Origin: Eledone cirrhosa
Taxonomy: Eukaryota
Direction of reading: 5' to 3'
DNA length: 64,000 bases
Assembly: GCA_964016885.1 (NCBI GenBank)
Contig: OZ024741.1
Span: 61,070,001 to 61,134,000, forward strand
The position numbers and the translations under genes were made by a program. The stretch's first letter is position 1, and each line of letters starts with the position of its first letter. This document shows positions 16,748 through 60,256 of the stretch, piece by piece. The notes below the pieces were generated by a model. It was not told the origin of the DNA. It worked only from the letters and a program-made list of their open reading frames with translations, and did no database searches.

Positions 16748-17149
16748 CTTCTATATTAAAACTATATATATATATATAAAATATATATATATATACACAG
16801 AACATACATATATATAATATATATATATATACATAAAACACATACATACATAAAATATATACACACATAAAACATACATACATATATATAAAATAACTTA
16901 TATACACATATAAAATATATATATATACACATGATATACATATACATAAATATATATAATCAGGTTCAATAAAATGTGGTTTTGATGACTCCTAACCAGT
17001 AGAGGATCCGGTGGACCATCTACCATAGGGACGACAAACTATGGGTGGTTGTTGTTGTCCATTGGTCATTGGTATGGAGTGTAGGGACCTACAGGGGGGG
17101 GGCGTTGTGGGAGGCCGTAACCGGGGTTTATCCATATAACTTGAGGAAA

Positions 17150-18480: not shown

Positions 18481-18705
18481 TATATATATATATATATATA
18501 TATAGATATACGATATTAAACAAATGGAAACTATATTTATAAAACCATATTTATTTCATTATACATATTTCAGGGATACCATATTAAAATATGGCATGCC
18601 TTCGTCAGATAAAATACAATATATAAACAGTTTTATAAATAATTTTGACGTACCCTAATATAAGCGACCATTATTTTTGGAAGCTGTCTGGATAGTGATT
18701 TGTTT

Positions 18706-28670: not shown

Positions 28671-28932
28671 ATAGATAGATAGATAGATAGATATATTTCT
28701 TTATTAGCCACAGGGGCACAAAAGAAGGGGACAAATACAAAGGGGGAAGTTTACATACAATAAAAACGTGTAAAATGTTATCACAGATGGAATTTAAAAG
28801 TTAGTCGATTTTCCCCAATAGAGGGAGACAGTTTATATGGGTAACACATACCCCCGAAAAAAATGTGCAACCCTCATCTCCAGGAGTACGAAGAGCTTGT
28901 ACTCCTTTCCTCTCCTCCTCCTTTTCCTCAAT

Positions 28933-31900
28933 CTACAGGCTGATATAGAGAGAAGGCCCATTCACTCGGGCCATTCTCGCCACTTTCACCCACCTTTCAT
29001 AAAACTTGCTGGGGTACAGCACCTCTCTCTCCATCCTGATTCTTCTTCCAAAGTGGTATTTGAAAAAAAGAATCAGTTGTTGGCCGGAGAGAAAGGTGTC
29101 TGACCTCAGCCCTTTCAACCTTGTCCACCATACAACCTCTTTCGCCATAGCTATCACACAAAGGAAAACCGCCTCTCCTTCGTTTTTGAAGGAGGGTGGC
29201 GGTTTGATCATGACAATGGACTCGGTGGTCAACTGGATTGGTCCCACCCGCGACAATAGTCGTTCTACATATCCCCACAGGTCAGTGACGCCCGGGCAGT
29301 GTATGAATGCGTGCGCGACGGTTTCTTCGTCTCGCACGCACCTCGGACAGATCTTTTTTGCAGGGTCCCTGCCCGGGCGCCCATGTCTGTAGAGTTTGTC
29401 TCGAACTGGTAGAGCTCTTCGGTAGCACTGCCAGGCCAGGGACTTTTGGAAGTTGTCCATCGGTCCCGGGCGGAAGGTCCTACCGAACAGACTGGCCAGT
29501 TCATCTTCCTCCACGCCTAGAGTTTCACCGAGCGCGTCGTCGCACTTGCTGCGGACCAACCCTCTATAGAATGACGAAGTGGAGTCTCCACTGATCGCCG
29601 GGTCCGCCTGCCAGAGGGCTGTGAGCGCCTGAGCACATTCGATGTGCCAGTCGCCCATTTTCCTCGGTCTCTGCTTGACCCAGGACTGCAGCTCGGTCAG
29701 TGAGACGAGTCGTGGGAAGGCTCGCCTCACGAACGGGGCCCACACCGGTTGTCCGGTGAGGAATACGTAGAGATGCCGCAGCCTGAGCGCGTGTTTGCGC
29801 ATCGTCAACCACGGCATCCCCAGCCCTCCGTTAGAAGGGTGTTGGCAGCAGATGGATCTTCTTACCAAAGGAGCCCGCCTCTTCCAAAGGAATCGGAAGA
29901 GGGCGCGCTCCATTTTGGTGAGCGTTTTGGCTGGACAAGGCACGACGGTCAAGCGGTAGTAGATGGCGGACGCTATAAAAGTGTTCGCCACCTCCGCTCG
30001 ACCTTTCAAGGATAGTTTGCACTCGGCCCACTTCTGGGTGAGTGCAAACACCTTGGCCGTCACTTCGTTCCAGTTCTTCTCCACCTGGAGGTCCGGACCA
30101 AACCAGACCCCGAGCAGCTTTACCGGTCCTTCCGTCCAGCGTCCGACGACGCCATCGGAAGGCATCGGTCTGCCTCTCCACGATCCGAGTTGCAAACCGA
30201 TGGACTTGTCCCGGTTCAGCTTCGCTCCTGTGAGACTTTCGTATTCCTTTAGTAAGGTGCCGACTTTCTCGATTTGCGAGGCGCTCGACACCATTACTGT
30301 CACGTCGTCGGCGTAGGCCGACGCCGCTTTCCGCAGTCCCGGTTCCAGAGGGATGCCCTGCAATAGCTCCAGCTTCCGCAGTAGTGGCTCGAGAGTCAGT
30401 ACGTACAGAAGGGAGGAGAGAGGGCATCCCTGTCGAATGGATCGCGTAATATGGAACGGCTCCGAGAGGTAACCGTTCACCTTGACCCTTGAGCAGATGT
30501 TGCTGTTGTGCATTGCAGCAATCCAGCCCCTGAACACGGGTCCGAAGCCTGCCGCCTCGAGCACCGCATCCAGGTAACGATGGTCAACCCTATCGAAAGC
30601 CTTAGACTGATCCAAGTTGATCAGGGCCCCACCGAAGCCGGGTTTACACCCTACCCTCTCTATGATGTATCGCATGAGGTGGAGGTTGTCGTGTATGGAC
30701 CTGGTCGGGATCGCGCATGTCTGCGCTTCTCCCACCAGGTTCTCGACGACAAGCGCCAGCCTCTTTGCCAACACCTTGGCCAAAATCTGTAACTCTGTGT
30801 TTAGCAGAGTTATGGGCCGGAAGTTGCCTATGTCATCCCCCTTATTCTCGTCCTTCCTGATTAGTGTGACCACGCTCCCGGTTACAGAACTGGGAATTCT
30901 CCCGTTCTGTTGCCAGTTGCAGTAGACCGCTTCCAGGAGACCGGAGAATAAGTCCGGCATTGCTACGTAAAATTCGTAGGGTAGACCGTCGAGACCTGGA
31001 GATTTGCGTTTGCCGCATTGGCTCAGCGCGTCCCCTATCTCAGTGGCTGAAATCGGCTTTTCGCAGAACTTCGCTGTCCGAGAGTCGCGGTAGGCCGTCG
31101 AGGTATGGACCGAAATCCATAGCCTCTCCCGGCGCGCCGCTCCCCCCGAACAGCCGAGCAAAGTGCCGCTGAAAAGCCGCACACATCTGCTTCGGCTCAC
31201 GTATCACGCGTCCGTTTTGGTCCTTCAAAGACCGAATCGTGGACTTGTTGCCACTTTTTGCCTCCGTCACTCGGGCCCAGCTAACAGCTTTGGCTCCCTC
31301 GTTTCCCAGAGCACGTATTTTGCTTCTGACAACGCAGCCCTCGTGCTTCGCGTCGAAGAACTGGTCCAAGGCCGTTCTCGTTGCTAGCACGCTGGCTACG
31401 TTGCCACTTCTAATAGCCTCTTCTACTTTATCTACCAGTTCCTTCTCGGTTCTATTTCTATCTAACGGTAATTCTTTACTAAAAACTATCGAGTCTAATC
31501 TAACTGCCCTCTTGAGAGAGTACCACCATCTGTTGTTGACAATGGCCCCTGTCAAGTGCTGTTTAACTAAAGTGCTAATCCGTCTACTGTAGGCTTTGCT
31601 TGTCGGTAACGACAAGTTCAGCTTCCAGTAGCCGGGTCCTTGTCTATGGGTTCTATCAAGGTTGGCCATGCAGGTCACTAGTTTGTGATCTGAATAGGCA
31701 ACCATGAACATTTGTGGACAGCTTAACATGTCCCTATCCTTATTTCTAACTAGAACCCTATCTAGGTACGATCTAGATGTTCCGCTACGATTACTCCACG
31801 TCCACAGTGGCGCAGTCGGAAAATCTAGTCGATAACTATCGGCCAGGTCAAATCGGTCGATTAACTGTTTGAGGCTGTTACACCCCCCTTTATCGGGACA

Positions 31901-32365
31901 TGCTCCCACATAGTCCCAACGTGCATCTAGGATTCCATTCCAGTCCCCCACTAAAAGCAAGGAGCGGGACGTTCCCAGAAAAGTCTCTAGACGTTTGAAG
32001 AAGTCTGGCCGCGGTGTCCCGGATGGGGCATATGCGGCCACCAGCCTGAACGCTCCACCTTCACTACCGTCAACGTCTAGGACCACCAGTCGACCCTCCG
32101 GGTCCAGATGAACCGTCTGTGTTACGAGGCCCAGGTGTTTCCGCAGCAAAACGGCAACTCCGCCCCCACCCCCCGGTTGACAGAGAGATGCGTAGATCTC
32201 AAAGTCATCGAAGATGGGGGCCAGCTGTCGCTCGCCGTGGATCCTGGACTCGCAAATGGCTACCACATCCAAACTGTGCGACCTGAGGTCGTTTAAGAGT
32301 TTGCCCTGTTTCCAGGGCATCCCCAGGCCGCGTACGTTCACACATCCAACTCTTATATTGGCCAT
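28933..32365 (-). pseudogene. ORF2 of copy B (APE endonuclease, RT, CCHC) with one frameshift near 31070
   Basis: NVRGL, ICESR, GDWNG, YLDRVLV, SDHKLV (APE); KSPGLDG, FRPITLLN, YADD (RT); split into 441-aa and 755-aa ORFs. Confidence 0.9.
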
Positions 32366-32398
32366 GTTGGTGCTGAAAAGTTAAAAGAGGAAAAGAGA

Positions 32399-34315
32399 TC
32401 ACTCACCCTTCGCCTCCTGGGGACCAGGCCGCACGATTTCCATGGGGGTGTTGGAGGGGTTGTCTGGATGGGTGGTGGTTTCCGGCGGGGTGGGGACGCA
32501 GATGTTTGGTGGGGTGGGATCTGGTGGGATGGGGGTGTCTGGGGTGGGGAGGCATTTGAGAAGGACGCGGTTGAGTGGTTTCACGCAGGAATTCCCCACA
32601 TCCTTCTCAAATGTTTCTTTTAGGGACCTATAAGTTTGTATAGGGACCCTAATCAGTTTTAGGTTCATTTTTTTGCTATTTTTTATAGAGTGGGCGAAAG
32701 TTTTCCCTTCGGTGAAAACCGAAGGGTCGTTCGTAATGGTCTCCATTAGTGTTTTGTTTTCAGTGTTTATGTAAGTGTAAGTGTAATTTTCTTGTGTTGT
32801 GTTTGTTTTTGTCTGTAGTTCTTGTGTGTGCTTTCGTTTTGTTGTAGGTATTTTGTTTTCAGGAGGTGGAGGTTTTGTTTGTGATATTTTTGTTGTTTGT
32901 GTTGGTGGTTGTATGTTTGTGGTAGTGTTTGCTGGTTTTTTGCTTTTGTGATGTCTTTTCTTTCTTTTCGAGCGATGGGGTTCTCCCTCGTCTTCACTGG
33001 GTGATGGCGAGATAGCCTCATCTGTTGTATCGTCTGTGTGATTGGGGAGGGGTATGTCTTGGGGAGCTGTTGTGTCTGTATGTGATTTTGCAGTGGTTTT
33101 AGGTGGAGTGAGGTTGGGTGGGACTGTGTTTGTTGTGGTTATTTTTGTGTGTTGGTGTTGTTGTTGTAGTTGTGGTGTTGGTGGTTGTGTTGTTTTGATG
33201 GGTGTTGGCAGAAGAGCCTTTTTTTGGTTCATTAGTTTAGGACAGGAAGCCCTCAGGTGACCCCTGCTAAAGAAATGGTAACATGAAGGCCGCCTACCCT
33301 CAACCGAAAGGTTTATGTAGGTAAGTCCGTCCAGGAGTACACGCTGTGGGATCATAGCTATTCGCTCTGGGCTCATTTGCACCAGAACTTCAATGCTAGT
33401 CCCATTGAATACATCTCTAGGGGACTTGCCTACTGACAGTATTCTGTCTTCATCAAAATTGATGAAGCCGCACAGTATCCACCATATGTTCACCTTTGGT
33501 GTGACACTTGTGATTCTGATCTTTTGTGTCCTTTTTCCCATGTATGTAGGGAAAAAGGTGTACAGGTTGGATACAATTGGCGACACAGAGTAATTTTGGG
33601 CCTTCAATTGATCCTTCATCAGTACCGAAATACTCCCAAAAAGTTTGCTTCTTTGAATGAATGCAATATCATTCATTGAATCTTTGAAAACCAGTTCAAT
33701 ATCTTTCTGTGACAATTGGACTGGTTTTCGGGTAGAATTGGAAACTGTCCTAAAAACTATCGTTTTGAGAGCAGTTTCCTTGCGAATTTCTACCGGAGAA
33801 TTGATGCTGAAAGCACCATTTTTTTCGAAGGTGACATATCTCTTAGCGTCCTTTAAAAGGTGTTCACCATTTGTTATGTCGAGATATATCAATTGTTCTT
33901 TCTTTTGAACTTTCTCCGCAAAGGAGATTTTTGGTTTCTTTGTGGAATCCGTATTGGTGGTGTTGTCATTATTGTTGTTATTCTTGTTGATATTCTTGTT
34001 GTCACCGATGTTGGTATCATCCGTATTTTCCTTGGTGTTGTTGTTGTCTTTGATGCTGGTGTTATTGGCGTTGTCTTTATTTTTTTCTTTGTTGTTGTTA
34101 TCATTGTTGCTTTTATCATCATTATTGGTTTTGCTGTTATTTTTGTTGTCATTGAGCTGTTTGGTGTCATTTGTGTTGTTTGGATGTGAATTCGTTTTTT
34201 TATTTTCATTTTGTCTTTCCATCTCTATAGTATCTAGTGAAGAAGACGTTGTTGACTGCGAGCTTTGTAGTCTTACCGCCTCTCCACCACCATTATCGTT
34301 GGACGCAGCGTTCAT
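32399..34315 (-). CDS. ORF1 of copy B (gag-like nucleic-acid-binding protein; zinc knuckle mutated)
   Basis: 638 aa; SFAEKV motif, VEGRRPSCYHFFSRGHLRASC (second Cys replaced by Phe), Asn/Thr/Pro-rich tails; homologous to 38953-40848. Confidence 0.85.
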   Translation of the reverse strand: MNAASNDNGGGEAVRLQSSQSTTSSSLDTIEMERQNENKKTNSHPNNTNDTKQLNDNKNNSKTNNDDKSNNDNNNKEKNKDNANNTSIKDNNNTKENTDDTNIGDNKNINKNNNNNDNTTNTDSTKKPKISFAEKVQKKEQLIYLDITNGEHLLKDAKRYVTFEKNGAFSINSPVEIRKETALKTIVFRTVSNSTRKPVQLSQKDIELVFKDSMNDIAFIQRSKLFGSISVLMKDQLKAQNYSVSPIVSNLYTFFPTYMGKRTQKIRITSVTPKVNIWWILCGFINFDEDRILSVGKSPRDVFNGTSIEVLVQMSPERIAMIPQRVLLDGLTYINLSVEGRRPSCYHFFSRGHLRASCPKLMNQKKALLPTPIKTTQPPTPQLQQQHQHTKITTTNTVPPNLTPPKTTAKSHTDTTAPQDIPLPNHTDDTTDEAISPSPSEDEGEPHRSKRKKRHHKSKKPANTTTNIQPPTQTTKISQTKPPPPENKIPTTKRKHTQELQTKTNTTQENYTYTYINTENKTLMETITNDPSVFTEGKTFAHSIKNSKKMNLKLIRVPIQTYRSLKETFEKDVGNSCVKPLNRVLLKCLPTPDTPIPPDPTPPNICVPTPPETTTHPDNPSNTPMEIVRPGPQEAKGE

Positions 34316-34532
34316 AACGTAATCAAAATTTTACAATATTTTTTCCAAGATTCGATGGAGAAAAATTTTTTAAATGGATATTCCGCCCCTGAAGGGGCGA
34401 AAATGAGTTGACCCACCACCTGAAGGTCCAGACGGGTGGTCAAGTTACACAATGATATAAAATTGAACTAAAAACTCACGTTTTTTCCTTACATAAATTA
34501 ACGGAAACTTCTCCGCGAAGTGACACACGACT

Positions 34533-34539
34533 GATAGAG

Positions 34540-34603
<64 letters not shown>

Positions 34604-34660
34604 TTCTTTATTAGCCACAAGGGCGCAACAAGAAAGGGGACAATACAAAGACATGCCGGG

Positions 34661-34753
<93 letters not shown>

Positions 34754-34796
34754 ACAGATACATATATAGATAGATAGATAGGTAGGTAGATAGATA
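34533..34796. repeat. (GATA)n tracts enclosing Tx1 copy C
   Basis: Direct reading. Confidence 0.95.
34603..34660 (-). mobile_element. Tx1 copy C (58-bp extreme 3'-end stub)
   Basis: tttctttattagccacaagggc..aaggggacaatacaa matches the 3' terminus of copy B (28696-28740). Confidence 0.8.
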
Positions 34797-35251
34797 TCTT
34801 TCTTTATTTTCCACAGGAGTGTACAAAAATGGGACATTACAAGACGGGGGTTTTACATAAAAATCATATAACTTTAACATTAATAAATAACAATAAACTA
34901 TATATAATAAAATTACAATTGAAAAACCCAGTAGGGGGGAACGTTACTGCAGGGTTGTTTTACACCCCGTGGATAGAACAACCCTCAACACCAGGAACTC
35001 GTTTTGTAGGTGTTCCTGTCTTCCCTCTGTTTATCTTCCTCAAACTACAGGTTTATATACAGAGAAGGCCCATCCACTCGGGCCATTTTCGCCACATTTA
35101 CCCACCTTTCAGCGAATTTACTGGGGTGTAGCACCTCTCTCTCCACTCTCACCTTCCTTCTGAAGTGGTACTTAAAGAAGGGGATAAGTTGTTGTCCGGA
35201 GAGAAAGGTGTTTGCCCTCAGTCCTTTTCACCTCGTCCACCATATTACCTC
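34797..35251 (-). mobile_element. Tx1 copy D (455-bp 3' fragment)
   Basis: Encodes EVIWWTR..ERWVNVAKMARVDGPSLYINL* plus a 3' UTR with AATAAA; bounded by GATA repeats. Confidence 0.9.
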
Positions 35252-35492
35252 GATAAGTAGATAAATAGATAGATAGATTTCTTTATTTACCATAAAGGCA
35301 TAAAAAGAAGGGACAAATACAAAGGGGGAGTTTACATATAATCGAGTAAAAAGGGTGTAACATGAAAATAATCGAAAATAACCTCAAAAGGGAGGGGACG
35401 TGATGGGGGTTGCACACACCCCCGAAAAAGTGTGCAATCCTTTGCCCGGGTAGCACATGGAGAAGGTGCTCCCCTCTCCTTTACTTCTTTAC

Positions 35493-38400
35493 CTACAGGA
35501 TGGTATACAGAGAAGGCCCATTTACACGAGCCATTCTCGCCACTATCACCCACCTTTCATAAAACTGCCTGTGGCCAAGCACCTCTCTCTCCATTCTTAT
35601 CCTTCTTCCGAAGTGATATCGGAAGAAGTAGACCAGACTATGGCCAGAGAGGAAGTTGCCTGACCTCAGACCTTTCAATCGTGTCCACCAAACAACCTCT
35701 TTCAACATGGCTATTACGCACAGAAAAACCGCCTTTGCTTCCTTTGTGAAGAGAGGAGGCGGTTTGATTGTCATCACGGACTCGGCGGTCAATTTAATCG
35801 GCGCCACCCGCGACAGCAGTTGTTCGGCGTAGCCCCACAGATCAGCCACGCCCGGACATTGCACCAATGCGTGCGCAACGGTTTCTTCGTGACGCACGCA
35901 TCTAGGGCAAATCTTTTTTGAGGGATCCCTGCCCGGGCGCCCGTGTCTGTAGAGCCTCTCTCGAACGGGTAGAGCCCCCCGGTAGCACTGCCAGGCCAGT
36001 GACTTCTGGAAGTTGTCCATTGGTCCTGGGCCGAAAGTCCTACCGAACAGGCTGGCCAGTTCGTCTTCTTCCATGTCCAGCGACTCTCCAAGGGTGTCAT
36101 CGCCCCTGCTAGCCACCAGCCCTCTATAGAATGCTGAGGTGGATTCTCCACCGATGGCCCGGCCCGCTTGCCAGAGAGCCCTGAGCGCCTGAGCACACTC
36201 AGTGTGCCAGTCTCCCAGTTTTCCGGATCTTTGCTTGACCCAGGACTGTAGCTCGGTGAGCGAGACGAGTCTCGGAAAGGCTCGTTTCACGAACGGAGCC
36301 CACACCGGTTGACCAGTGAGGAATACCTGTAGGTGCCGTAGCCTTACGCATTATCAACCACGGCATCCCCAGCCCTCCTTTCGAAGGTTGTTGGCAGCAG
36401 ATGGATCTTCTCACCATAGGAGGACGCTTCTTCCAAAGAAATTGGAAGAGCATGCGTTCCATGGTGGTGAGTGTTTCCTTAGGGCAAGGCACGACAGTCA
36501 GGCGGTAGTAAGTGACGGACGCTATGTAAATGTTCGCCACCTCCGCCCGGCCTTTTAGGGACAGCTTACACTTGGCCCATTTCTGGGTTAGTGCAAACAC
36601 CTTGTTCGTAACCTCGTTCCAGTTCTTTTCCACCTGGAGGTTCGGTCCAAACCAGACCCCAAGCAACTTTACCGGGCCCTCCGTCCAGTGTCCGACGACA
36701 CCGTCAGGAGGCATCGGTCTGCCTCTCCACGTTCCGAGTTGCAGCCCGATGGATTTTTCCCGGTTCAGTTTCGCTCCTGACAACCTTTCGTACTCCTCCA
36801 GTAAGGTACCGATCGCCTCGATCTCCGAGTCGGTCGATACCATTACTGTTACGTCATCGGCGTAGGCCGACACCGCTTTGCTCAATCGTGGTTCCAGGGG
36901 GATACCCTGCAACAACTCCAACTTCCTCAGTAAAGGCTCGAGAGTCAATACGTACAGAAGGGAGGAGAGAGGGCACCCCTGTCGAATGGATCGTGTGATT
37001 TCGAACGGCTTCGAAAGGTAGCCGTTCACCTTGATCCTAGAACAGATGTGGTTGCTATGTAGGGCAGTGATCCAGCCTCTGAAAACAGGACCGAACCCAG
37101 CCGCCGCTAGCACCGCATCCAGGTAACCATGGTCGACCCTATCGAAGGCCTTAGACTGATCTAAGTTGATCAGGGCCCCACCGAAGCCGGGTTTGTTGCC
37201 AACCCTCTCTATGATGTATCGCATGAGGTGGAGGTTATCGTGAATGGACCTGGATGGGATAGCACATGTCTGCGCATCTCCCACCAGGCCTCCCACGACA
37301 AGCACCAACCTCTTTGCTAACACCTTGGCCAAAATCTTTAACTCTGTGTTTAGCAGGGTTATGGGCCGAAAATTATTTATATTATCCCCCTTGTTCTCGT
37401 CCTTCCTCACCAGCGTGACTACGCCCTTGGCTACAGAACAAGGAATTCTCCCGTTCTGCTGCCAATTGCAGTAGACCGCTTCGAGGAGTTCGGAGAAGAA
37501 GACCGGCTTTGCTAAATAAAGTTCGTAAGGTATACCATCGAGACCTGGAGATTTGCGTCTGCTGCATTGGCTCAGCGCATCTCCGATCTCATCAGCCGAG
37601 ATTGGTCCCTCGCAGGACTCTGCCTCTTCGTTCGAGAGACGCGGCAGGTCGTCGAGGTATGGACCGAAATCCACGCCCCCGCCTGGACCCTCGCCTCCCC
37701 CGAACAATCGGGCAAAGTGCCTTTGAAAGGCCTCGCACATCTGCTTAGGCTCCCGGATCACCCGTCCATCTTCGTCTTGCAACGACCGGATGGTGGATCG
37801 ATTTCCACTCTTAGCTTCTGTCACGCGGGCCCATCCAACGGCTTTGGCCCCCTCATTACCTAGAGCACGTATTTTACTTCGAATGACGCAGCCTTCGTGC
37901 TTTGCATCGAAAAACTGGTTCAAGGCCGTCCTCGATGCCAGCACTCTGGCCACATCTTCGCTCTTGATTGCCTCTTCCAATTTACCTGTTAATTCTTTCT
38001 CGTTTCTATTCCTATCGGCAGCTAACATCTTGCTATAACTTATTGATTCTGTTCTAATCTCTCTTTTGAGAGATGCCCACCATCGGTTGTTGACGATTGC
38101 ACCCGTCAACCTCTCCTTAACTAATCTGCTAATCCGGTTTCTGTAAGTCTCTTTTGCCGGTAAAGACAAATTAAGTTTCCAGTAACCGGGACCCTGTCTA
38201 TGTGTTTTCTCGAGATTGACCACGCAGGTCACTAATTTGTGATCCGTGTAGCCAACCGTGCGCATTTCTGGACAGCTTAATATGTCCCTATCCTTACTTC
38301 TAACTAAGAATCTATCTAAGTACGATCTAGATTGACCACTGTGGTTTCTCCAAGTCCAGGTAGGCACAGTTGGAAAATCTAGTCGATATCTATCGACCAA

Positions 38401-38919
38401 GTTAAAACGGTCGAGTAACCCCTTGAGGCTGTTACACCCCCCTCTATTAGGACATGCTCCTGCATAGTCCCAACGTGCATCCAGGATGTCATTCCAATCC
38501 CCCGCTAGAAGCAGGGAACGCGACGTTCCCAGAAAAGTCTCCAAACGCTGGAAGAAGTCGGGCCGTTCAGCTCCGAAAGGGGAGTAGACGGCGACCAGTC
38601 TCAAGGCCGCACTTTCACTACTGCCAACGTCTAGCACCAACAAACGACCCTCCGGGTCCGAGTGCACAACCTGTACGGCAAGACCCAGGTGTTTTTGCAG
38701 CAGTACGACAACCCCACCCCCACCTCCAGGTTGACAGAGAGATGCATGCACCTCAAAGTCATCGAAGGTGGGGGCCAGCTGCCGCACGACGCTGATTCGA
38801 GTCTCACAGATAACCATTACATTTATACTACATGACCTGAGGTCATTTAGAAGCTTTGCTTGCTTCCAAGTTGAGCCCAGGCCACGTGCATTCAAACATC
38901 CTACTCTTAACACATCCAT
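35493..38919 (-). pseudogene. ORF2 of copy E (APE, RT, CCHC) with an 11-nt deletion frameshift near 36344
   Basis: 906-aa and 270-aa ORFs; comparison with copy A shows loss of ttaatgcgtgt. Confidence 0.9.
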
Positions 38920-38952
38920 GTGGGCGGCAGAGCCAAAGGAGAGTGTAGAGAC

Positions 38953-40848
38953 CTACCTTTCCGCTTCCCGGGGTTCGGGTTGCACGACTTCCATGGGGTC
39001 GGGGGTGTTGGGTGAAGGGGTGTCTTGTGGTGGTGTGGGGTCGTCAGTGTGTGGTGGGGTTGGGGTGTTTGGAGTTGTGTTGGGGAGGGGAAGGGGAGGG
39101 GGAAAGCTTTTTAGTAGGACGCGGTTTATGGGTTTGACAGAGGGTGGTCCTACGTCCTCCTTAAAATCCTTTTTTAGTTTTTGGTAGAGGTTCATTGGGA
39201 TCTTTATTAGTTTTAAATGTGGGTAGTTTTCTGACGAAACAAAGTTTACACCTTCGGTTTGTACCGAAGGATTATTGTATATGAGTTCATTTAATTTATT
39301 ATTGTTTCTGTTGATGTAAGTATAGTGTAATGTCTTTTTTTCCGATGGTGTGAGTGTTTCGAAGAGGGGAGGGGCAGGTTTGGTTTTGTTTGTTGCTGGA
39401 GGGGTGTTTTCTGTTTTGTTGGATTGTGTTGAGATTTGGGTGGGGGTTGTTTGTCCTTGTGTGTTTTGCACATGTTTTCTTTTTTTCCTTTTAATCTGTC
39501 TGAAGGACTCCGTTTCTTCCTCCGAATTAGTTGGGTTATCTTCAGTGTTGGAGGGAAGAGGTATGTTTGCTGGTAATGTTTCCGTGTTGGTTTTCTTTGT
39601 GGGGGAGATGGATGTCACTATGTTAGACTGTGTTGTGTGTTGTGTCTGCGGTGGTTGTGTTGTTTTATTGAGTGAGAGGTTGGGTGGGCCTGTATTTTGT
39701 TTTGGGGTAATGTGTTGTGACTGTTTGTGTTGTGGTGGTGTTGTGGTTTTACTGAGGGACGGGTTGGGTGGGACTGAGTTTTGTTGTTTGTTTATCTGTT
39801 GTGGTGGTGGAGCTGGTGGTGGTAGCAGGGTTTTCTTTTTGTTGAGTTGGGGACAAGCGGCCTTCAGGTGCCCTCTGCCTGCACAGATATGGCAGGACGG
39901 CCTTCTCCCCTCCACGCTAATGTTTATATACCCGTGGTCCTCTAATAGGATTCTGTCGGGTATTTGGGCGATGCGTTCAGGCTTCATTTGTACTACTAGC
40001 TCTATACCTGTTCCACTGAACGCATTGCCTGTGGTTTTCCCAATGGAAATCACGTTGTCATTCACTGGATCGATGAAGCCAGCTATGAGCCAGCAGTAGT
40101 CCACATCTGGCATCATTGCATCCAGCCATATGCGTTGAGTTCTTTTCCCCATATAAGATGGATAAAAGGTGAAATTTTTCGAACGAATCGGTGACAAAGC
40201 ACATTTTTTTGCCGCCGATTCGTTCTTCATGATAATTGCTAGGCTTCCATACAGTCTGTCTTTTCTTATGAAAGTGGTTTCATTAAGTACTTCTGTGAGT
40301 ACTGTTTTGATATCTGCTTGAGAAGGCTGTTCAGGTTTTTTTGTACTGTTGTTGATGGTCCGAAACTTGACCGTTCGGCTTTCAATGTCTTTCGTGAATT
40401 CTTGAGGCATTTTTACCGATAAAATACCATTCTCTCCTTCACTTATGTATTGTTTGGCGTCCGTGATCCTTCGTACCACATCTGAAATGTTTTCCGCTAT
40501 ATAAGTCAAAGATTTCTTTGTTTTCTGTGCAAATGAAATCTTGTCGTCTGCTTTGTTTTCTGATATGGTGTTATTTTCAACTGTTATTTTTGTGTTTGTT
40601 GTGTCTTTGTTTGTGTTATTAGTATTGTCATGCAATTTTTCAAATTTTTTTTTTTCGTTGTTGGAATCCAAGTCCAGATTTGTGTTTTCGTCATTTAATT
40701 TTTTCTCCGCAGATTCGTCTGTTTTTATTTTAATTTTTCCTTCCTTCTCTATGACGTTAGTTGGGAAGGAAGGGAGGACTAAGGCGTGCGAGCTTACAAC
40801 TCTTACCGCTGTCCCCCCACCACTATTTTCGTTCGCTGCGTTTAACAT
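38953..40848 (-). CDS. ORF1 of copy E (gag-like, intact CX2CX4HX4C knuckle)
   Basis: 631 aa; VEGRRPSCHICAGRGHLKAAC. Confidence 0.85.
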   Translation of the reverse strand: MLNAANENSGGGTAVRVVSSHALVLPSFPTNVIEKEGKIKIKTDESAEKKLNDENTNLDLDSNNEKKKFEKLHDNTNNTNKDTTNTKITVENNTISENKADDKISFAQKTKKSLTYIAENISDVVRRITDAKQYISEGENGILSVKMPQEFTKDIESRTVKFRTINNSTKKPEQPSQADIKTVLTEVLNETTFIRKDRLYGSLAIIMKNESAAKKCALSPIRSKNFTFYPSYMGKRTQRIWLDAMMPDVDYCWLIAGFIDPVNDNVISIGKTTGNAFSGTGIELVVQMKPERIAQIPDRILLEDHGYINISVEGRRPSCHICAGRGHLKAACPQLNKKKTLLPPPAPPPQQINKQQNSVPPNPSLSKTTTPPQHKQSQHITPKQNTGPPNLSLNKTTQPPQTQHTTQSNIVTSISPTKKTNTETLPANIPLPSNTEDNPTNSEEETESFRQIKRKKRKHVQNTQGQTTPTQISTQSNKTENTPPATNKTKPAPPLFETLTPSEKKTLHYTYINRNNNKLNELIYNNPSVQTEGVNFVSSENYPHLKLIKIPMNLYQKLKKDFKEDVGPPSVKPINRVLLKSFPPPLPLPNTTPNTPTPPHTDDPTPPQDTPSPNTPDPMEVVQPEPREAER

Positions 40849-41087
40849 TTCTGTTAGACGATTGAAATTTTTTACACAAAATTTTTTAAAACAGGTTTTT
40901 CACCTCTAGGAGGGGTAAAGATGAGCTGACCCACCGCCTGACAGTTCAGACGGAGGGTCAAGCTACACAATTGTATCAAAATTAAGTTTGAACTCACAAA
41001 ATTTCCTCAATAAATTTGAACAAAACTTCTGTGCGAAGTGAATGACATCCACACTGTAGAACAGACGACAGCTAGATGAGTAGATAA

Positions 41088-41688: not shown

Positions 41689-42065
41689 TATAAATGCTTT
41701 TGAGTCTTGTCTGCTGCGCGCAGCCCCAACACGACTATACCCTAGGTCCAGAGCCCAACACCCTGACCCTTCCCCTCCCATTCTTCTGTGGCCCTATCAC
41801 TTCTTTTCTGTTTTTAAATATTGATAAAATTTCTAGTTATGATGTGTAGGGTACCTTAATAATCTGTCTGTATGGTTGTTTTTCTGAATTAGAGCCCTTC
41901 CTTCTCCCTTTCAAAAAGCATATGAAACAATGTGTGTTTAAATACATATTTCTCGCAGCTTCTGTTAAAAACCTGTTCTGTTTTTACAGATATGAATTTA
42001 TAGTATACTTCACTGTTTAGTGCAAAATTCAATATATATATATACATACCTACACACACAGGCGC

Positions 42066-42150
<85 letters not shown>

Positions 42151-42201
42151 GGCTTCCTCATGATTTCTCCCGAATGAAACAGTTCTAGTCCTGTAGAAGC
42201 C
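42151..42201 (+). ncRNA. Hammerhead motif, pLTR family 1, core mutated (CTCATGA)
   Basis: GGCTTC/GAAGCC helix I, GAAACAG/CTGTA helix III; isolated in (TA)n. Confidence 0.6.
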
Positions 42202-42211
42202 ATTTCTATAT

Positions 42212-42308
<97 letters not shown>

Positions 42309-42417
42309 CAATATATGTGTGAATGAAGTAATTCCGTCGGAAAAGTCCAGGAAAAAAGAGTGCTCTATGTAGGTAACAGAGCTTAATAGTTATGTAATAA
42401 ACAACATAAGGCAATTA

Positions 42418-42477
42418 TTCCATTTACCAGTGGTTTCTTAAAAGCAAAAGATTTTGCTTTCAATCCTCAGAATGAAA
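42418..42477 (-). ncRNA. Hammerhead motif, pLTR family 2
   Basis: TTTCATT-CTGAGGA-TTGAAAGCAAAA/TTTTGCTTTTAA-GAAACCAC-TGGTA-AATGGAA. Confidence 0.7.
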
Positions 42478-42500
42478 AACACACACATATATACACACGC

Positions 42501-42537
<37 letters not shown>

Positions 42538-42699
42538 GAAATTGGAATAAATGCTCTGAAATAGCGATATATATGTGAATATAGACATAGAATATTCGAA
42601 AATATTCTGTATGTTTATAATAAACATTTTGAAGACCTAATCGCTATAGAATAGAATACGTCACGTATTACAATTAGATTCTCGATAAAAGCAAGGGAA

Positions 42700-42742
42700 G
42701 TAATCTACGCGTTTCATTCTTGTTAGAAATCATCAGGACTAC
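42700..42742 (-). ncRNA. Hammerhead ribozyme in left-arm unit (also at 43010, 43320, 43630, 43940)
   Basis: Reverse complement of the 44179 motif. Confidence 0.75.
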
Positions 42743-44178
42743 ATATCCAGTGCTTTTATCGAGAATGACACAGCTAGAGACTTATAGAATACTTAGCTGT
42801 GTACAGGAACTGGTTTGAAAGAGCGGTTGCCGGTCCGGCAGAAATTAGAAATTGGAATAAATGCTCTGAAATAGCGATATATATGTGAATATAGACATAG
42901 AATATTCGAAAATATTCTGTATGTTTATAATAAACATTTTGAAGACCTAATCGCTATAGAATAGAATACGTCACGTATTACAATTAGATTCTCGATAAAA
43001 GCAAGGGAAGTAATCTACGCGTTTCATTCTTGTTAGAAATCATCAGGACTACATATCCAGTGCTTTTATCGAGAATGACACAGCTAGAGACTTATAGAAT
43101 ACTTAGCTGTGTACAGGAGCTGGTTTGAAAGAGCGGTTGCCGGTCCGGCAGAAATTAGAAATTGGAATAAATGCTCTGAAATAGCGATATATATGTGAAT
43201 ATAGACATAGAATATTCGAAAATATTCTGTATGTTTATAATAAACATTTTGAAGACCTAATCGCTATAGAATAGAATACGTCACGTATTACAATTAGATT
43301 CTCGATAAAAGCAAGGGAAGTAATCTACGCGTTTCATTCTTGTTAGAAATCATCAGGACTACATATCCAGTGCTTTTATCGAGAATGACACAGCTAGAGA
43401 CTTATAGAATACTTAGCTGTGTACAGGAACTGGTTTGAAAGAGCGGTTGCCGGTCCGGCAGAAATTAGAAATTGGAATAAATGCTCTGAAATAGCGATAT
43501 ATATGTGAATATAGACATAGAATATTCGAAAATATTCTGTATGTTTATAATAAACATTTTGAAGACCTAATCGCTATAGAATAGAATACGTCACGTATTA
43601 CAATTAGATTCTCGATAAAAGCAAGGGAAGTAATCTACGCGTTTCATTCTTGTTAGAAATCATCAGGACTACATATCCAGTGCTTTTATCGAGAATGACA
43701 CAGCTAGAGACTTATAGAATACTTAGCTGTGTACAGGAGCTGGTTTGAAAGAGCGGTTGCCGGTCCGGCAGAAATTAGAAATTGGAATAAATGCTCTGAA
43801 ATAGCGATATATATGTGAATATAGACATAGAATATTCGAAAATATTCTGTATGTTTATAATAAACATTTTGAAGACCTAATCGCTATAGAATAGAATACG
43901 TCACGTATTACAATTAGATTCTCGATAAAAGCAAGGGAAGTAATCTACGCGTTTCATTCTTGTTAGAAATCATCAGGACTACATATCCAGTGCTTTTATC
44001 GAGAATGACACAGCTAGAGACTTATAGAATACTTAGCTGTGTACAGGAACTGGTTTGAAAGAGCGGTTGCCGGTCCGGCAGAAATTAGAAATTGGAATAA
44101 ATGCTCTGAAATAGCGATATATATGTGAATATAGACATAGAATATTCGAAATAAATTCTCGATAAAAGCACTGGATAT

Positions 44179-44221
44179 GTAGTCCTGATGATTTCTAACA
44201 AGAATGAAACGCGTAGATTAC
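44179..44221 (+). ncRNA. Minimal type I hammerhead ribozyme in right-arm unit (also at 44489, 44799, 45109, 45419, 45729, 46039, 46349)
   Basis: GTAGTC-CTGATGA-tTTCTaacaAGAAt-GAAAC-GC-GTA-GATTAC; palindromic helix III ACGCGT; enclosed by the 16-bp IR ATTCTCGATAAAAGCA/TGCTTTTATCGAGAAT. Confidence 0.8.
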
Positions 44222-46509
44222 TTCCCTTGCTTTTATCGAGAATCTAATTGTAATACGTGACGTATTCTATTCTATAGCGATTAGGTCTTCAAAATGTTTA
44301 TTATAAACATACAGAATATTTTCGAATATTCTATGTCTATATTCACATATATATCGCTATTTCAGAGCATTTATTCCAATTTCTAATTTCTGCCGGACCG
44401 GCAACCGCTCTTTCAAACCAGTTCCTGTACACAGCTAAGTATTCTATAAGTCTCTAGCTGTGTCATTCTCGATAAAAGCACTGGATATGTAGTCCTGATG
44501 ATTTCTAACAAGAATGAAACGCGTAGATTACTTCCCTTGCTTTTATCGAGAATCTAATTGTAATACGTGACGTATTCTATTCTATAGCGATTAGGTCTTC
44601 AAAATGTTTATTATAAACATACAGAATATTTTCGAATATTCTATGTCTATATTCACATATATATCGCTATTTCAGAGCATTTATTCCAATTTCTAATTTC
44701 TGCCGGACCGGCAACCGCTCTTTCAAACCAGTTCCTGTACACAGCTAAGTATTCTATAAGTCTCTAGCTGTGTCATTCTCGATAAAAGCACTGGATATGT
44801 AGTCCTGATGATTTCTAACAAGAATGAAACGCGTAGATTACTTCCCTTGCTTTTATCGAGAATCTAATTGTAATACGTGACGTATTCTATTCTATAGCGA
44901 TTAGGTCTTCAAAATGTTTATTATAAACATACAGAATATTTTCGAATATTCTATGTCTATATTCACATATATATCGCTATTTCAGAGCATTTATTCCAAT
45001 TTCTAATTTCTGCCGGACCGGCAACCGCTCTTTCAAACCAGTTCCTGTACACAGCTAAGTATTCTATAAGTCTCTAGCTGTGTCATTCTCGATAAAAGCA
45101 CTGGATATGTAGTCCTGATGATTTCTAACAAGAATGAAACGCGTAGATTACTTCCCTTGCTTTTATCGAGAATCTAATTGTAATACGTGACGTATTCTAT
45201 TCTATAGCGATTAGGTCTTCAAAATGTTTATTATAAACATACAGAATATTTTCGAATATTCTATGTCTATATTCACATATATATCGCTATTTCAGAGCAT
45301 TTATTCCAATTTCTAATTTCTGCCGGACCGGCAACCGCTCTTTCAAACCAGTTCCTGTACACAGCTAAGTATTCTATAAGTCTCTAGCTGTGTCATTCTC
45401 GATAAAAGCACTGGATATGTAGTCCTGATGATTTCTAACAAGAATGAAACGCGTAGATTACTTCCCTTGCTTTTATCGAGAATCTAATTGTAATACGTGA
45501 CGTATTCTATTCTATAGCGATTAGGTCTTCAAAATGTTTATTATAAACATACAGAATATTTTCGAATATTCTATGTCTATATTCACATATATATCGCTAT
45601 TTCAGAGCATTTATTCCAATTTCTAATTTCTGCCGGACCGGCAACCGCTCTTTCAAACCAGTTCCTGTACACAGCTAAGTATTCTATAAGTCTCTAGCTG
45701 TGTCATTCTCGATAAAAGCACTGGATATGTAGTCCTGATGATTTCTAACAAGAATGAAACGCGTAGATTACTTCCCTTGCTTTTATCGAGAATCTAATTG
45801 TAATACGTGACGTATTCTATTCTATAGCGATTAGGTCTTCAAAATGTTTATTATAAACATACAGAATATTTTCGAATATTCTATGTCTATATTCACATAT
45901 ATATCGCTATTTCAGAGCATTTATTCCAATTTCTAATTTCTGCCGGACCGGCAACCGCTCTTTCAAACCAGTTCCTGTACACAGCTAAGTATTCTATAAG
46001 TCTCTAGCTGTGTCATTCTCGATAAAAGCACTGGATATGTAGTCCTGATGATTTCTAACAAGAATGAAACGCGTAGATTACTTCCCTTGCTTTTATCGAG
46101 AATCTAATTGTAATACGTGACGTATTCTATTCTATAGCGATTAGGTCTTCAAAATGTTTATTATAAACATACAGAATATTTTCGAATATTCTATGTCTAT
46201 ATTCACATATATATCGCTATTTCAGAGCATTTATTCCAATTTCTAATTTCTGCCGGACCGGCAACCGCTCTTTCAAACCAGTTCCTGTACACAGCTAAGT
46301 ATTCTATAAGTCTCTAGCTGTGTCATTCTCGATAAAAGCACTGGATATGTAGTCCTGATGATTTCTAACAAGAATGAAACGCGTAGATTACTTCCCTTGC
46401 TTTTATCGAGAATCTAATTGTAATACGTGACGTATTCTATTCTATAGCGATTAGGTCTTCAAAATGTTTATTATAAACATACAGAATATTTTCGAATATT
46501 CTATGTCTA

Positions 46510-46601
<92 letters not shown>

Positions 46602-46604
<3 letters not shown>

Positions 46605-47889
46605 GGTGGGGCATAATTCATGTTACAAAGTTTAAATCAATTTAAAAATACATTATGTTGCTAATATAACTAATATATTTGTATCAAATCCATGCACTAT
46701 AACCATATTAACTATTGTTCAGAACATTACTCCATTAACAATTTGCAATGTCCATAGAATTGAAAAGAAAGTTCATAATGGAGAAGCATGAAAAAGGCCT
46801 GACTCCACCCAAGATATTTAAACTGGGGAAAATTCTTAAGATCAATAGAATGTTGATCAAAAGGACAATCGATCGATTTAAGGAAACTTCCTCGATCAAA
46901 GACAGACCTCGATCCAGACGCCCTCGCACCTCAAGAACACCAAAACTCGTTAAAAATGTGAGGGAAAAAATAAGGCGTAATCCAAGAAGGTCCATGAGAA
47001 AAATGGCAGAAGAAGCAAAAACATCGCCGAGAACTATGCGGAGGATATGTCGAAATGATCTGGGGATGTCACGCTCTAAGTTCCAAAAGAGGGAGCTTCT
47101 TTCTGCAGCCACAATTGAAAAGAGGCTCTCCAGAAATAAACTGTTATTGAACTGTATCAATGATGGCACGCTGCAAAATATCATCTTTACAGAAGAGAAG
47201 TTATTCCCTGTGCAGCAGTCTCACAATCATCAAAATGATCGAGTACTTGCAAAAAGTCTCAAATCAATTCCTTCAAGTGTAGGAAAAGTGTTCAGAACAC
47301 AGAAACCAGCATCAGTGATGATTTGGGCAGCCATTTCTGAAAGAGGTAAGTCTCCTCAAGGAGTTAAAATTAACAAAGAACTTTACATAAAGGATATTTT
47401 GGAAGGAGCACTGATGCCATAGTGCATATCTGTTTATGGCGATGACATTTGGACTCTCCAACAAGATGGAGCGACGAGCCACACTGCTTGCATAACACAA
47501 CAGTGGTGTAGAGACAATTGTCCTGCATGGTTCAGTAAGGAAGAGTGGCCTCCCACATCACCAGATCTCAACCCTCTCGATTTTTTTTTATGGTCAATTC
47601 TTGAGAGTGAAACCTGCTCTACTCCTAGCCAAAATATTGAAACTCTAAAATCAAAACTGAATAAAGTATGGGAGAAAATACCCATGGAAACTGTTCGTGT
47701 AGTCATCGAAGTCTTTCCTAGAAGACTTCCAGCGGTGGTGAGAGTTAGAGGAAAGCATTTCGAATAAATTTTTGTGCAGTTGTTTAATAGTATATTACTT
47801 ACTATTTGTTGGAGTCAGATCTTGAAATAAATGTTTTTTTCAAGAACTATTTGCATTTTATTTTGTAACAGTGTTTATGCCCCACCCTG
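46602..47889 (+). mobile_element. Tc1/mariner superfamily transposon, DD37D (maT-type), full length
   Basis: TIRs CAGGGTGGGGCATAA / TTATGCCCCACCCTG with TA flanks; 1288 bp. Confidence 0.92.
46748..47767 (+). pseudogene. DD37D transposase with an in-frame stop at 47420-47422
   Basis: IIFTEEKLF (first catalytic D reads E), VMIWAAIS, QQDGATSHTA..WPPTSPDLNPLDFF with 37 residues between the second and third D. Confidence 0.88.
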
Positions 47890-48300
47890 TATATGTACAA
47901 GCATACACATACACAAACATAGCCATACACACATACATATACATACATACATGCACACAATCATACATACACACGTACATACATACACATACATAAATGC
48001 ACTCCTCTACATATTCACACACGCAAATAAATATAAGAAAAAAATATAACAAAAAAATATATATAAAAAAATATAAAAATTATTATAGAGTTGACAGCGA
48101 TACAAACGGCGGGTAGATGAACAGACACGCGTGGTAAGTAATACACCCAAATGCACGTATACATACGTATGAAATAGTGAATACATACACACACTCTCAC
48201 ACATAAATATACATATACGAATACATAAACACATGCATACACATGCACAAATACATGCACAAACATGCACACACACACGTATACAATTATACACACACAT

Positions 48301-48529: not shown

Positions 48530-50404
<1,875 letters not shown>

Positions 50405-51436
50405 TAAGATCAAAAGATGGTTAAAAGAGTTCCAAGTATTTTATTATGCGCATTTCAAAAACAAATAACATCATGCGATGACATTTGCGTTTTCGTCAGA
50501 TAAAATAGGGAGACGTGATATGAAGGTTAAAAACACTTGTGAATAGTGCAGTTTTAAATCAACATATGAAAAGTACTTTTAGATTGATGTGTGATATTGG
50601 GGAAAAAAAAAATTGAATAAGAAAAACAAAAATTTATTCAATTTGATATTGCCAGCTACTATTCTTCTATTTCGCTCTTACTTCTCAACAATGCTCTATC
50701 TTTCGCTTACAAATATTCAGACATCACCACAGATGAACTTCACATCATTCTGACCGCACGTAAAACCATCCTAGAGTTCAACAATGAATATTGGACCAGA
50801 GCTGATACCTCTAACAACTTTGACATCACAATGGGAGCATCCGATTCAACCCAATTGACAGATTTAAATAATATCTTTATTTTGAACTCTTTGAATCGGA
50901 AAATTCCTCAACTTCGTGGTGGACTTTATAGTGACGAAGGACTCTTTACTATCTTAAATTGCAACATAGTTAACCTTAATATTATTAAGAACAATATACG
51001 TAATCTCTTTAACCAACATAACTTAAAAATTGAATTTGATAACAGCATCAAACTAGCTAATTTCTTGGATGTATCTCTTAATCTTGACACTGGCCTATAT
51101 TACCCTTACCATAAAAACAATGAGAACCTAAATTATGTTAATTTTAAATCTAATCACCCCACTAATATTAAGAATGCTAAATTTAGTAATATTGGAAAAA
51201 GAATATCCAACCTATCATCTAATAAAAACATCTTTGATGCTAACGCCAATTACTATAATAACGCGCTTTCTAAAGCCGGTTATCCTGATAAAATCAAATA
51301 TAGTAAAGAAACAAATTCTAGAAGATCTTACAGTAGAATAATTAATCATGATCATTCCAATAACTTTAATAAAAGACCTAGATACAAAAACATATTCTGT
51401 TATAATGCTCCTTTCTCCATCTCTATTAATAATAAT

Positions 51437-51621
51437 TGTTTCTACTTTAGGCACAAGGCCAGCAATTACCAGTGCATTACTGGTACTTTATTTTATCGAC
51501 CCCGTAAGGATGAAAGGCAAAGTCAACCTCGGCGGGATTTGAACTCAGATCGTAAAGGGACATAACTATGCTGAAAAGCATGGCGTCCGACCCTCCACCG
51601 ATACTGCCAATCCACCGCCCT
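51437..51621 (-). mobile_element. tRNA-derived SINE inserted in the PLE ORF with a 15-bp TSD
   Basis: TCTATTAATAATAAT (51422-51436) / TCTGTTAATAATAAT (51622-51636). Confidence 0.88.
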
Positions 51622-53416
51622 TCTGTTAATAATAATATTCCTAAATTATTCTTTAGTGCCTTAAATAAATGCTCCCCTCCCTCACATATATATAGTAAAA
51701 TATTTAACAAACACACTATAAAATTTTCCTATTCGACCTCCTCCAACATCTCCAACATTATCTCTAAACACAACAATAAAATACTAAATACTAAATCTCT
51801 TCCTTCCAACACTGAATATCATAATAATAGTAATAGTTCTCCCGACGTCATTGTTAACTCTAGGCTAATTTCTGCAAACCCAAATACAACGTCAAACGCA
51901 ACTTCATTAAATGTTCTTAATCCCATTCTAAATCAAGAAACTATTATTCCTATCGTAAATAACTTCTCCAATCCAATTCCTTCTATAGATAACACTAGGT
52001 CACTTGTTAATAACTCTGTTAATTTCTCTAATCGCAATTGTAATTGCCCTGTTAAAAATAAATGTCCTCTCAACAACCATTGTCTTGAAAAAAACTTAAT
52101 CTACGAATGTAAAGTTATAACTGACACCAATTCCTTTAACTATTTTGGCTCCACTTCCACCTCCTTTAAAGCTCGTCTTTATAATCATCATTCGTCTTTT
52201 AAATACCAACTTAAAAGAACCAACACGGCACTCTCAGAATTCATATGGTCCTTGAAAGACAAAAATATTAACTATAACATCTCTTGGAGGAAGGTTTGTT
52301 CTGCTTCTACATACTTGAATGGTTCTCTATCCAAGACATGTAATCTCTGTTTATGTGAGAAATTTACCATTATATCTAATTTAGATTCTATTATAAATAG
52401 ACGCACTGACTTGTTTTCTCTCTGCTTGCATAAATTCCACAGAACATTCTATAAAGTATACAGCTAATATCTAATACTTTACTAATTTAAAATCCTTTTC
52501 TCAAAGGCATATATATATATATACATATATATTTCTTTAAAAATATATCCATCTTTCTATCTTATTTCAATGTTATTTATTATACATTATATAATACTAG
52601 TTACTCATTCTATATCACTCCTATTTATCACTTCCCTTTCTTTATTTTTTCTTTTTCTTTTAATTTCTAACCTCTAATCTATACCTTTTCTTCCTAGATA
52701 CTTCTCAATTCTCATTATTACTCACCACAATATATCCTTACCCTTTTAAATACTTTATAATATCACCTTGAAAAATTCTTCGTAAACATAAACATTTTTT
52801 GACGTTAGATTATTCATCCTCAATTCATTATTTTTTTCTCCCTTCCATGCACATCTAACTTATACATCCACTTATTCATCCACTCTTCTACTTATTTTCA
52901 CAATATATCCTTAATTACATTACTATTGTTATATTTTTATATTTTTTTAATTTCTTTCCATCGCACATATTATTAAACCCTTAAATATTATTCTTAATAC
53001 ATATTAACAATTTCTTTTCATCGCACATATTATTAAACCCTTCAATATACAAACCTTAATTTAACATTATTCTAAAATTTTTCTCTTCGTTAATTTTCAA
53101 ATTCTTTTAATTTATATATTATCTTCCAACGGTTTTTTAACCTCTCTATGTAAAACAATATATTTTTCTCAGTTATAATAGCTATCTCTCTCTCTATATA
53201 TATCACCCATCTCTCCTCCTATATCATCCTTCCTTTACTATACTCCTCCCCCTCCATTCTTTACTCTCATCTACTCCTCGTTTTCATCCTTTCCACACCC
53301 ACAACCCCTCAATTTTTTTTTCCCAATATCACACATCAATCTAAAACTACTTTTCATATGTTGATTTAAAACTGCACTATTCACAATTATTTTTTAACCT
53401 TCATATCATGTCTCCC

Positions 53417-53487
53417 TATTTTATCTGACGAAAACGCAAATGTCATCGCATGATGAAATTTGTTTTTGAAATGCGCATAATAAAATA
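53417..53487 (+). ncRNA. Type I hammerhead motif in PLE pLTR (mirror copy 50437-50507 minus)
   Basis: TATTTTAT-CTGACGA-[long helix II]-GAAA-TGCGCAT-A-ATAAAATA; palindromic helix III ATGCGCAT. Confidence 0.75.
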
Positions 53488-53615
53488 CATGGAACTCTTT
53501 TAACCATCTTTTGATCTTATATATTATTTATACTCCAGTCCTACAAACTGTAGAGTGCTACTTATCCGATATCTGCATTGCTTTATTGTACTACAATAAA
53601 ACTCACCTCCTACAC

Positions 53616-58278: not shown

Positions 58279-58369
<91 letters not shown>

Positions 58370-58371
<2 letters not shown>

Positions 58372-58500
58372 TCCTGATGATTTCTAATGAATGAAACAGT
58401 TCTAGTCCTGTAGAATCTCATCTATATTAAAACTTTTATACTCTGCTATGTATTGAGTACCTTACTTACTGTGGTTACCTCCGATTCAACCCGGAATAAC

Positions 58501-58504
<4 letters not shown>
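58370..58504 (+). ncRNA. Solo pLTR fragment with hammerhead (family 1) in (TA)n
   Basis: ATTC-CTGATGA-tttctaatgaat-GAAACAG..CTGTA-GAAT; the remainder is the reverse complement of 14447-14530. Confidence 0.7.

Positions 58505-59794: not shown

Positions 59795-60256
<462 letters not shown>

Follow-up and report, generated by a model that had tools for sequence, protein, structure and literature searches.

The question raised by this locus is whether a variant that recurs in every second unit along one arm of a retrozyme array records the RNA from which that arm was copied or a later event in the DNA. It is currently hypothesized that retrozymes spread through the reverse transcription of circular RNAs (PMC7229834; PMC7761336), while a competing view invokes local DNA expansion of Penelope ends (Li et al., 2026). 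Monomeric circles are reported to be abundant, with the copying of tandem cDNA from circles put forward as a proposal (PMC7229834); retrozymes are also described as deriving from Penelope ends, in arrays that may grow by unequal crossover (Li et al., 2026). The window analyzed here is a stretch of 64,000 nucleotides of Eledone cirrhosa contig OZ024741.1 (assembly GCA_964016885.1, positions 61,070,001 to 61,134,000), in which all coordinates below are numbered.

Judged on its sequence, the array at 42536-46513 can be described as a young, nearly perfect, head-to-head insertion of a non-LTR retrozyme. Its unit period is 310 bp. The left arm (42536..44151), whose ribozyme strand is the minus strand, spans 1,616 bp and holds 5.2 tandem units, and the right arm (44155..46513), with its ribozyme strand on the plus strand, spans 2,359 bp and holds 7.6 identical units. 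The arms are joined by their RNA 5′ ends through three extra bases (44152..44154), followed by a 5-nt microhomology that is common to both arms and offset by one base. The RNA 3′ ends of both arms, at 42536 and 46513, face (TA)n, remnants of the target lying at 42501..42535 on the left and 46514..46601 on the right. Compared with a unit carrying A at the site discussed below (the A unit), the left arm shows two differences and the right arm none. GC content over 42001-46000 is 0.32-0.34, and the whole window is free of N letters. None of the 35 frames of at least 150 aa in the window overlaps the array, which thus has no RT or GIY-YIG frame of its own. Neither end of the array carries a tail beyond unit sequence, and the microsatellite flanks would hide any target-site duplication. 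Tandem units of 150-450 bp, a type I hammerhead motif in each unit, GC below 50%, the absence of a coding frame and the presence of Penelope-like elements alongside in the window are all features of non-LTR retrozymes; (TA)n on both flanks, an inverted 5′-truncated copy at the 5′ end and a cDNA start inside the RNA are those of a Penelope-like insertion. About 60 bp to the left of the array is a hammerhead-bearing end (42386-42479) that matches 50213-50306 at 100% identity; the array therefore occupies a microsatellite that adjoins an older Penelope-like insertion. On the other side, the array's (TA)n is immediately followed by a Tc1/mariner-like element (46602-47890) with terminal inverted repeats and a broken transposase frame.

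A motif scan of the array recovered 13 hammerhead cores, five on the minus strand and eight on the plus strand. The predicted type I hammerhead at 44179..44221 (+), one of the 13, would be cut after 44215; it is composed of a 6-bp helix I, a CUGAUGA/GAAA core and a 4-bp helix II closed by U.U, together with a helix III of 2 bp within a 6-nt palindrome, the self-duplex of which was computed at -7.5 kcal/mol. No Rfam ribozyme was found at gathering level, HH9 being matched weakly, with a score of 19.2 bits (gathering score, 52) and an E value of 0.033. On a numbering that starts at the predicted cut, the right arm has its RNA 5′ end at nt 250 and its 3′ end at nt 128, and the left arm has these ends at nt 105 and nt 170. 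The arms cross eight and five predicted cut sites, respectively, and none of the four arm ends coincides with the predicted cleavage site, which speaks against a lone linear monomer released by cleavage as the template.

Metazoan non-LTR retrozymes (PMC7229834; Li, Clavereau and Pollet, 2026, bioRxiv 10.64898/2026.07.22.740005) are likewise described as low-GC tandem units of ~300 bp, each with a single type I hammerhead, that lack a long ORF and have Penelope-like elements beside them. The array differs from these in being a different sequence family (it has no Rfam match at gathering level), in that cleavage and circles are here predictions, and in having two arms set head-to-head within (TA)n. 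The main text of PMC7229834 nowhere uses "inverted," "head-to-head" or "microsatellite." The inverted arms and the (TA)n setting are instead shared with the Penelope-like Hydra clade (Craig et al., 2021, PMC8557442) and the anole Poseidon PAc (Frangieh et al., 2024, PMC11167929), for which a (TA)n target, an inverted 5′-truncated copy at the 5′ side, a hammerhead near the 3′ end, a cDNA start inside the RNA and priming on both strands have been described; the anole Penelope-type protein was reported to cut and extend both strands (PMC11167929). Unlike these elements, the array encodes neither RT nor endonuclease. Nowhere in the window was the unit seen to align along its whole length with a Penelope terminal repeat, and only the hammerhead core is common to other TA-flanked ends (28 nt, 93%). 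The inverted form also invites comparison with L1 twin priming, in which priming from both sides of a break yields two cDNAs and leaves an inverted 5′ part joined via microhomology; the array, however, is without a poly(A) end, both of its starts are internal and its template is a short repeat.

A lead to the mobilizing family lies within the window itself, in a decayed Penelope-like element on the plus strand (about 50390/50407-53532) that combines GIY-YIG-like and RT-like frames with a CxCX5C linker of the Hydra type, the motif given for the Hydra clade (PMC8557442). It bears a hammerhead close to its 3′ end, and that end recurs in inverted form on its 5′ side, so that hammerheads at 53425 (+) and 50499 (-) form inverted ends, the same architecture as that of the array. 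The assignment of 50407-53532 to the Hydra clade is a lead drawn from sequence; the element marks the family that likely mobilized the array. Two of the four Penelope-like frames checked contain the CxCX5C linker; Atlas look-alikes of these frames are GIY-YIG (0.95-0.96) and, weakly and on a minority of members, RT, while a Pfam scan assigned no family to any of five. Further GIY-YIG-like fragments occur at 17302-18336, 20582-21187 and 48912-49598. Outside the array, a relaxed scan found nine hammerhead-like cores, and in the seven that were checked the distance from the predicted cut to the start of a (TA)5 run is 36-137 nt. At 7042-7427, a hammerhead-bearing Penelope-like end related to 18481-18658 forms a near-perfect head-to-head palindrome without a spacer, which suggests fold-back synthesis. 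The head-to-head form would therefore seem to be an ordinary signature in this window, shared by decayed Hydra-type elements. Short TA-flanked ends at 14446-14581, 58369-58504, 16700-16763 and 42150-42215 have a hammerhead core and helix II close to those of the array and a longer helix III region; they are a candidate related family, and in the copy nearest the array on its left the core is broken. The window also holds a cluster of tandem LINE-like elements (AP endonuclease and RT) on the minus strand at 26820-40899 and, at 1307-1608, two tRNA-like copies in inverted orientation that are probably SINE heads.

A route by which the array could have been inserted can be proposed from these likenesses. 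A Hydra-type Penelope-like protein would nick both strands of (TA)n, and each 3′ end would prime cDNA at an internal position of the RNA (nt 128 and nt 170, counted from the predicted cut). The A-type template may have been a monomer circle or an uncleaved multimer; the two cDNAs would then run for 7.6 and a few units, respectively, before joining via the short microhomology. This route is favored because head-to-head arms, (TA)n targets, priming on both strands and internal initiation are published Penelope-like traits and recur at 7042-7427 and 50390-53532. Two primings are also consistent with the places at which related units end elsewhere. In public sequencing data, four of the 15 loose ends listed (of 48) continue from the unit into TA-rich sequence, at nt 139, 165, 167 and 172; the left arm's end (nt 170) falls within this zone of 139-172 nt and the right arm's (nt 128) lies near it.

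An earlier note on this DNA had described a strict alternation of A and G in the left arm and a uniform A in the right, and both observations are borne out. Successive left-arm units carry A at 42809, G at 43119, A at 43429, G at 43739 and A at 44049, and the seven equivalent positions on the opposite strand in the right arm (44422, 44732, 45042, 45352, 45662, 45972 and 46282) are all A. The site is present in 12 copies (5 + 7), against 13 hammerhead cores (5 + 8). On the ribozyme strand, the G allele is a C in place of U at nt 207 past the predicted cut, outside the hammerhead, and its two occurrences (43119 and 43739, both read on the plus strand) are 620 bp apart. Alignment of all units, proposed in the same note as a search for further phased variants, yielded no second one: across 3,975 bp the two G bases at this one site are the sole differences from the A unit. 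Accordingly, the 620-bp spacing is real, while the higher-order period that it was taken to represent is a matter of one site in two copies, with no phasing at several sites. In satellite higher-order repeats, variant units recur at a multiple of the monomer period; with one diagnostic site and 2.6 periods, the array has too little of either for that name. Strict alternation is one of the 10 possible placements of two G bases among five units (p = 0.1), and among the 12 copies both G bases fall in one arm in 31 of 66 placements and two units apart in one arm in eight of 66. The alternation is thus correctly observed yet statistically thin, and taken alone it is not beyond chance. A 21-nt pattern over the variant site had no matches in metagenome contigs and none in viral contigs.

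Of 24 public sequencing runs listed, four (X1, X4, X6 and X21) were queried with 44007-44319, which covers every unit position once together with the variant site and the joint. X21, the one raw-read run among them, yielded 0 reads and counts neither for nor against any reading. Contigs from such runs collapse the array, so that phasing is lost and an RNA circle cannot be told from a tandem array. X4, which carries a different organism label, contains the A unit with zero differences as a single cyclic 340-nt contig at a depth of 410; an identical unit under that label may possibly reflect a close relative, a recent transfer or an issue with the label itself. X1 returned 782 matching records, which represent a diverse high-copy family. 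No run listed a letter other than the A allele at 44049. A common G allele is thereby excluded for X4 and X6; in X1, where the 2% threshold amounts to a summed depth of about 5,600, an allele of two copies would stay hidden. No bridge over the junction (44151-44155) occurred among the 22 pieces listed, with 1,028 further. As to the G bases and this junction, the public contigs speak neither for nor against them.

On balance, the alternation is tentatively attributed to a single substitution that was later copied once by duplication of a 620-bp block of DNA at this locus, a reading to which we give a probability of about 0.4; this and the weights expressed below for its rivals are judgments and not calculations. 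Following insertion as outlined above, one left-arm unit would have gained the change through RT error or mutation, and two-unit slippage or unequal exchange would then have copied it. Several lines of evidence favor this reading. There is a single variant site in 3,975 bp, and the A unit looks like the master of its family, since it recurs letter for letter in X4 and no other letter is listed at 44049 in any run. In a toy DNA model, in which one change was followed by one to four duplications or deletions under nine settings, five-unit arms with two G bases had the order AGAGA in 7-32% of cases and a two-unit spacing in 24-64%. Three other exact blocks, of 2.4-2.9 copies, occur in simple sequence of the window. 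One is an exact 149-bp block repeated 2.9 times inside (TA)n (59806..60237), which has no hammerhead and serves as an internal control: its five sub-units are spaced 87/62/87/62 with an insert in the first, third and fifth, a strict ABABA order in which even the lengths of the TA runs were copied, and it is either a recent duplication or a product of assembly. The other two lie at 54413 (2.4 copies) and 21894 (2.8 copies). Finally, unequal crossover after insertion is the model of Li et al. (2026) for the growth of such arrays. Set against DNA duplication is its need for two events, a change and a duplication, in an array that is otherwise 100% identical. The control blocks, moreover, lie in microsatellite sequence, where slippage comes more easily than it does between 310-bp units, and may be products of the assembly themselves. 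Given two G bases in five units, a heterodimeric circle also fits the order better, at 1.0 against 0.07-0.32, or by 3-15 times.

That circle was the template proposed in the earlier note, according to which the left arm was copied round a 620-nt molecule made of one A and one G monomer, a course that would take 2.6 turns, and the right arm from a separate, all-A template. As an account of the alternation we consider it doubtful. It would produce the exact pattern in one event; both outer ends of the array fall in or near the zone in which units of the family are joined to TA, as if from two primings; and the arms cross five and eight predicted cut sites. The copying of tandem cDNA from circular templates is, in addition, the standing hypothesis, and in vitro ligation with RtcB has been described as leaving a putative circular dimer among its residual products (PMC7229834). 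All this hangs, however, on one site in two copies at p = 0.1, and no source of G monomers is seen, with no G listed at 44049 in X4, nor in X6 at 2% of depth, and X1 blind below about 5,600 of summed depth. Circular folding gave no sign that the variant favors a heterodimer, A and G monomers differing by less than 1.5 kcal/mol and AA and AG dimers likewise; the program cannot represent a helix III with a 2-nt loop and so is silent on activity. An ABABA block without any ribozyme lies 13 kb away in the same window. The in vivo circles described in PMC7229834 are monomers, and a Penelope-type RT used uncleaved linear RNA in vitro (PMC11167929).

The ribozyme itself bears on the same point. Hammerheads with a weak helix III are reported to cleave as double ribozymes, an arrangement presumed to permit cutting in multimers while sparing monomeric circles (Cervera and de la Peña, 2014, PMC4209133). 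Like the double hammerheads of newt, axolotl and Penelope repeats (PMC4209133; PMC7229834), the predicted ribozyme of the array has a 2-bp helix III and a palindromic cap that can pair between copies, and differs from them in a helix II closed by U.U and in an activity that is here a prediction. It had been argued that dimers are what such minimal hammerheads need in order to cleave; the 2-bp palindromic helix III is indeed of the kind reported to act as a double ribozyme, but the argument then points against a stable dimeric circle. Because its helices III can pair with one another, a double ribozyme can form in such a circle, which would be expected to open itself, as cleavage is thought to be allowed in multimers and avoided in monomeric circles (PMC4209133). 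The dimer requirement described for the double hammerheads concerns the cleavage of multimers and not the size of a template circle. Of the proposed copying round a circle, then, what stands is that the ends fit two primings and that no end lies at the predicted cut; the alternation does not single out a 620-nt circle.

Nor do the two arms oblige us to assume two template molecules, since one linear multimer would also fit, as would fold-back copying with a later change. In the former case, the template would have been a linear RNA, uncleaved and transcribed from a donor array part of which already alternated, both arms coming perhaps from one RNA of ~4 kb that was primed twice. Unprocessed RNA was the main substrate of the anole Penelope-type protein in vitro, which initiated internally and extended both strands (PMC11167929), and eight of nine Xenopus dimers tested did not cleave (Li et al., 2026). 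The 3′ end of the right arm (nt 128) and the 5′ end of the left arm (nt 105) nearly abut, as would be expected of a single RNA primed twice; ends within 23 nt of each other, however, arise by chance in 28% of draws. A transcript of this kind is unlikely to explain the alternation, for it requires a 4-kb RNA with a dozen uncut hammerheads and merely shifts the origin of the pattern to a DNA event at the donor. In the latter case, the left arm would possibly have been made by fold-back copying of the cDNA of the right arm, with the alternation again a later event in the DNA; the palindrome at 7042-7427 suggests that such events occur.

The G bases, or the number of units, might also be artifacts of assembly, introduced by polishing or by the mis-registration of reads by 620 bp in a perfect repeat. 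Tandem and inverted insertions of this type are described as troublesome for assemblies (Craig et al., PMC8557442), none of the 22 pieces listed (1,028 further) bridges 44151-44155 or shows G, and the presence of several exact blocks of 2.4-2.9 copies in one window could reflect the assembler. Nevertheless, we regard this origin as quite unlikely. The window contains no N, the flanks of the array differ in sequence, so that it is not a simple fold-back read, and the same base change at the same unit position twice is unlike random error. X1 furthermore lists three other joints of the head-to-head type, at depths of 5-35, although two of these enter at the unit's internal hairpin and may be spurious. 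A fold-back read as the source of the whole array is ruled out by the differing flanks.

The base change itself suggested one further origin. X6 shows four listed differences from the unit and a further 17 counted by eye in four loose-end rows (two further rows, which do not continue the unit, are left out of the count), and all are A-to-G on one strand or the other, of a single class within each row, with hammerhead positions among those affected. The X1 loose end that matches that of X6 reads as unit letters. X6 is thus likely RNA, with both strands of the family's RNA probably hyper-edited, and long inverted arrays such as the present one would invite hyper-editing; nothing specific on the editing of retrozymes was found in the open-access literature. 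At 44140, loose ends of X1 and X6 show the unit continuing into a different hairpin-like sequence, which may belong to a subfamily or to a repeat of the parent element. Deamination is also known in RNA:DNA hybrids. The two G bases could accordingly represent A-to-I deamination, in an antisense RNA template or in the cDNA strand of an RNA:DNA hybrid, at one favored site that was hit twice and fixed on integration. Read on the antisense strand, the substitution replaces A with G, and with 21 of 21 counted differences in X6 being A-to-G on either strand, the RNA of the family is probably edited. Although the variant is of the same class as those changes, no G is listed at 44049 in X6, a run that is itself not on record as RNA, and hyper-edited templates should leave many changes where one is seen. 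The transition from A:T to G:C is, besides, common and ordinary, which counts against deamination, and we think this origin very improbable.

With one variant site in two copies, this single locus offers too little to decide the matter of a dimeric circle. The mobilization of retrozymes by Penelope-like proteins is, by comparison, supported here, because a clean retrozyme array carries the head-to-head, (TA)n-targeted signature. A strict period-two variant in a freshly inserted arm is the trace that a dimeric circle would leave, and it could be used as an assay across a long-read genome; in the open-access literature, no paper was found that uses alternating units as such a test. Should copying round dimeric circles prove true, phased variants in young arrays would provide a direct, genome-readable test of the hypothetical circle-templated step in the spread of retrozymes.
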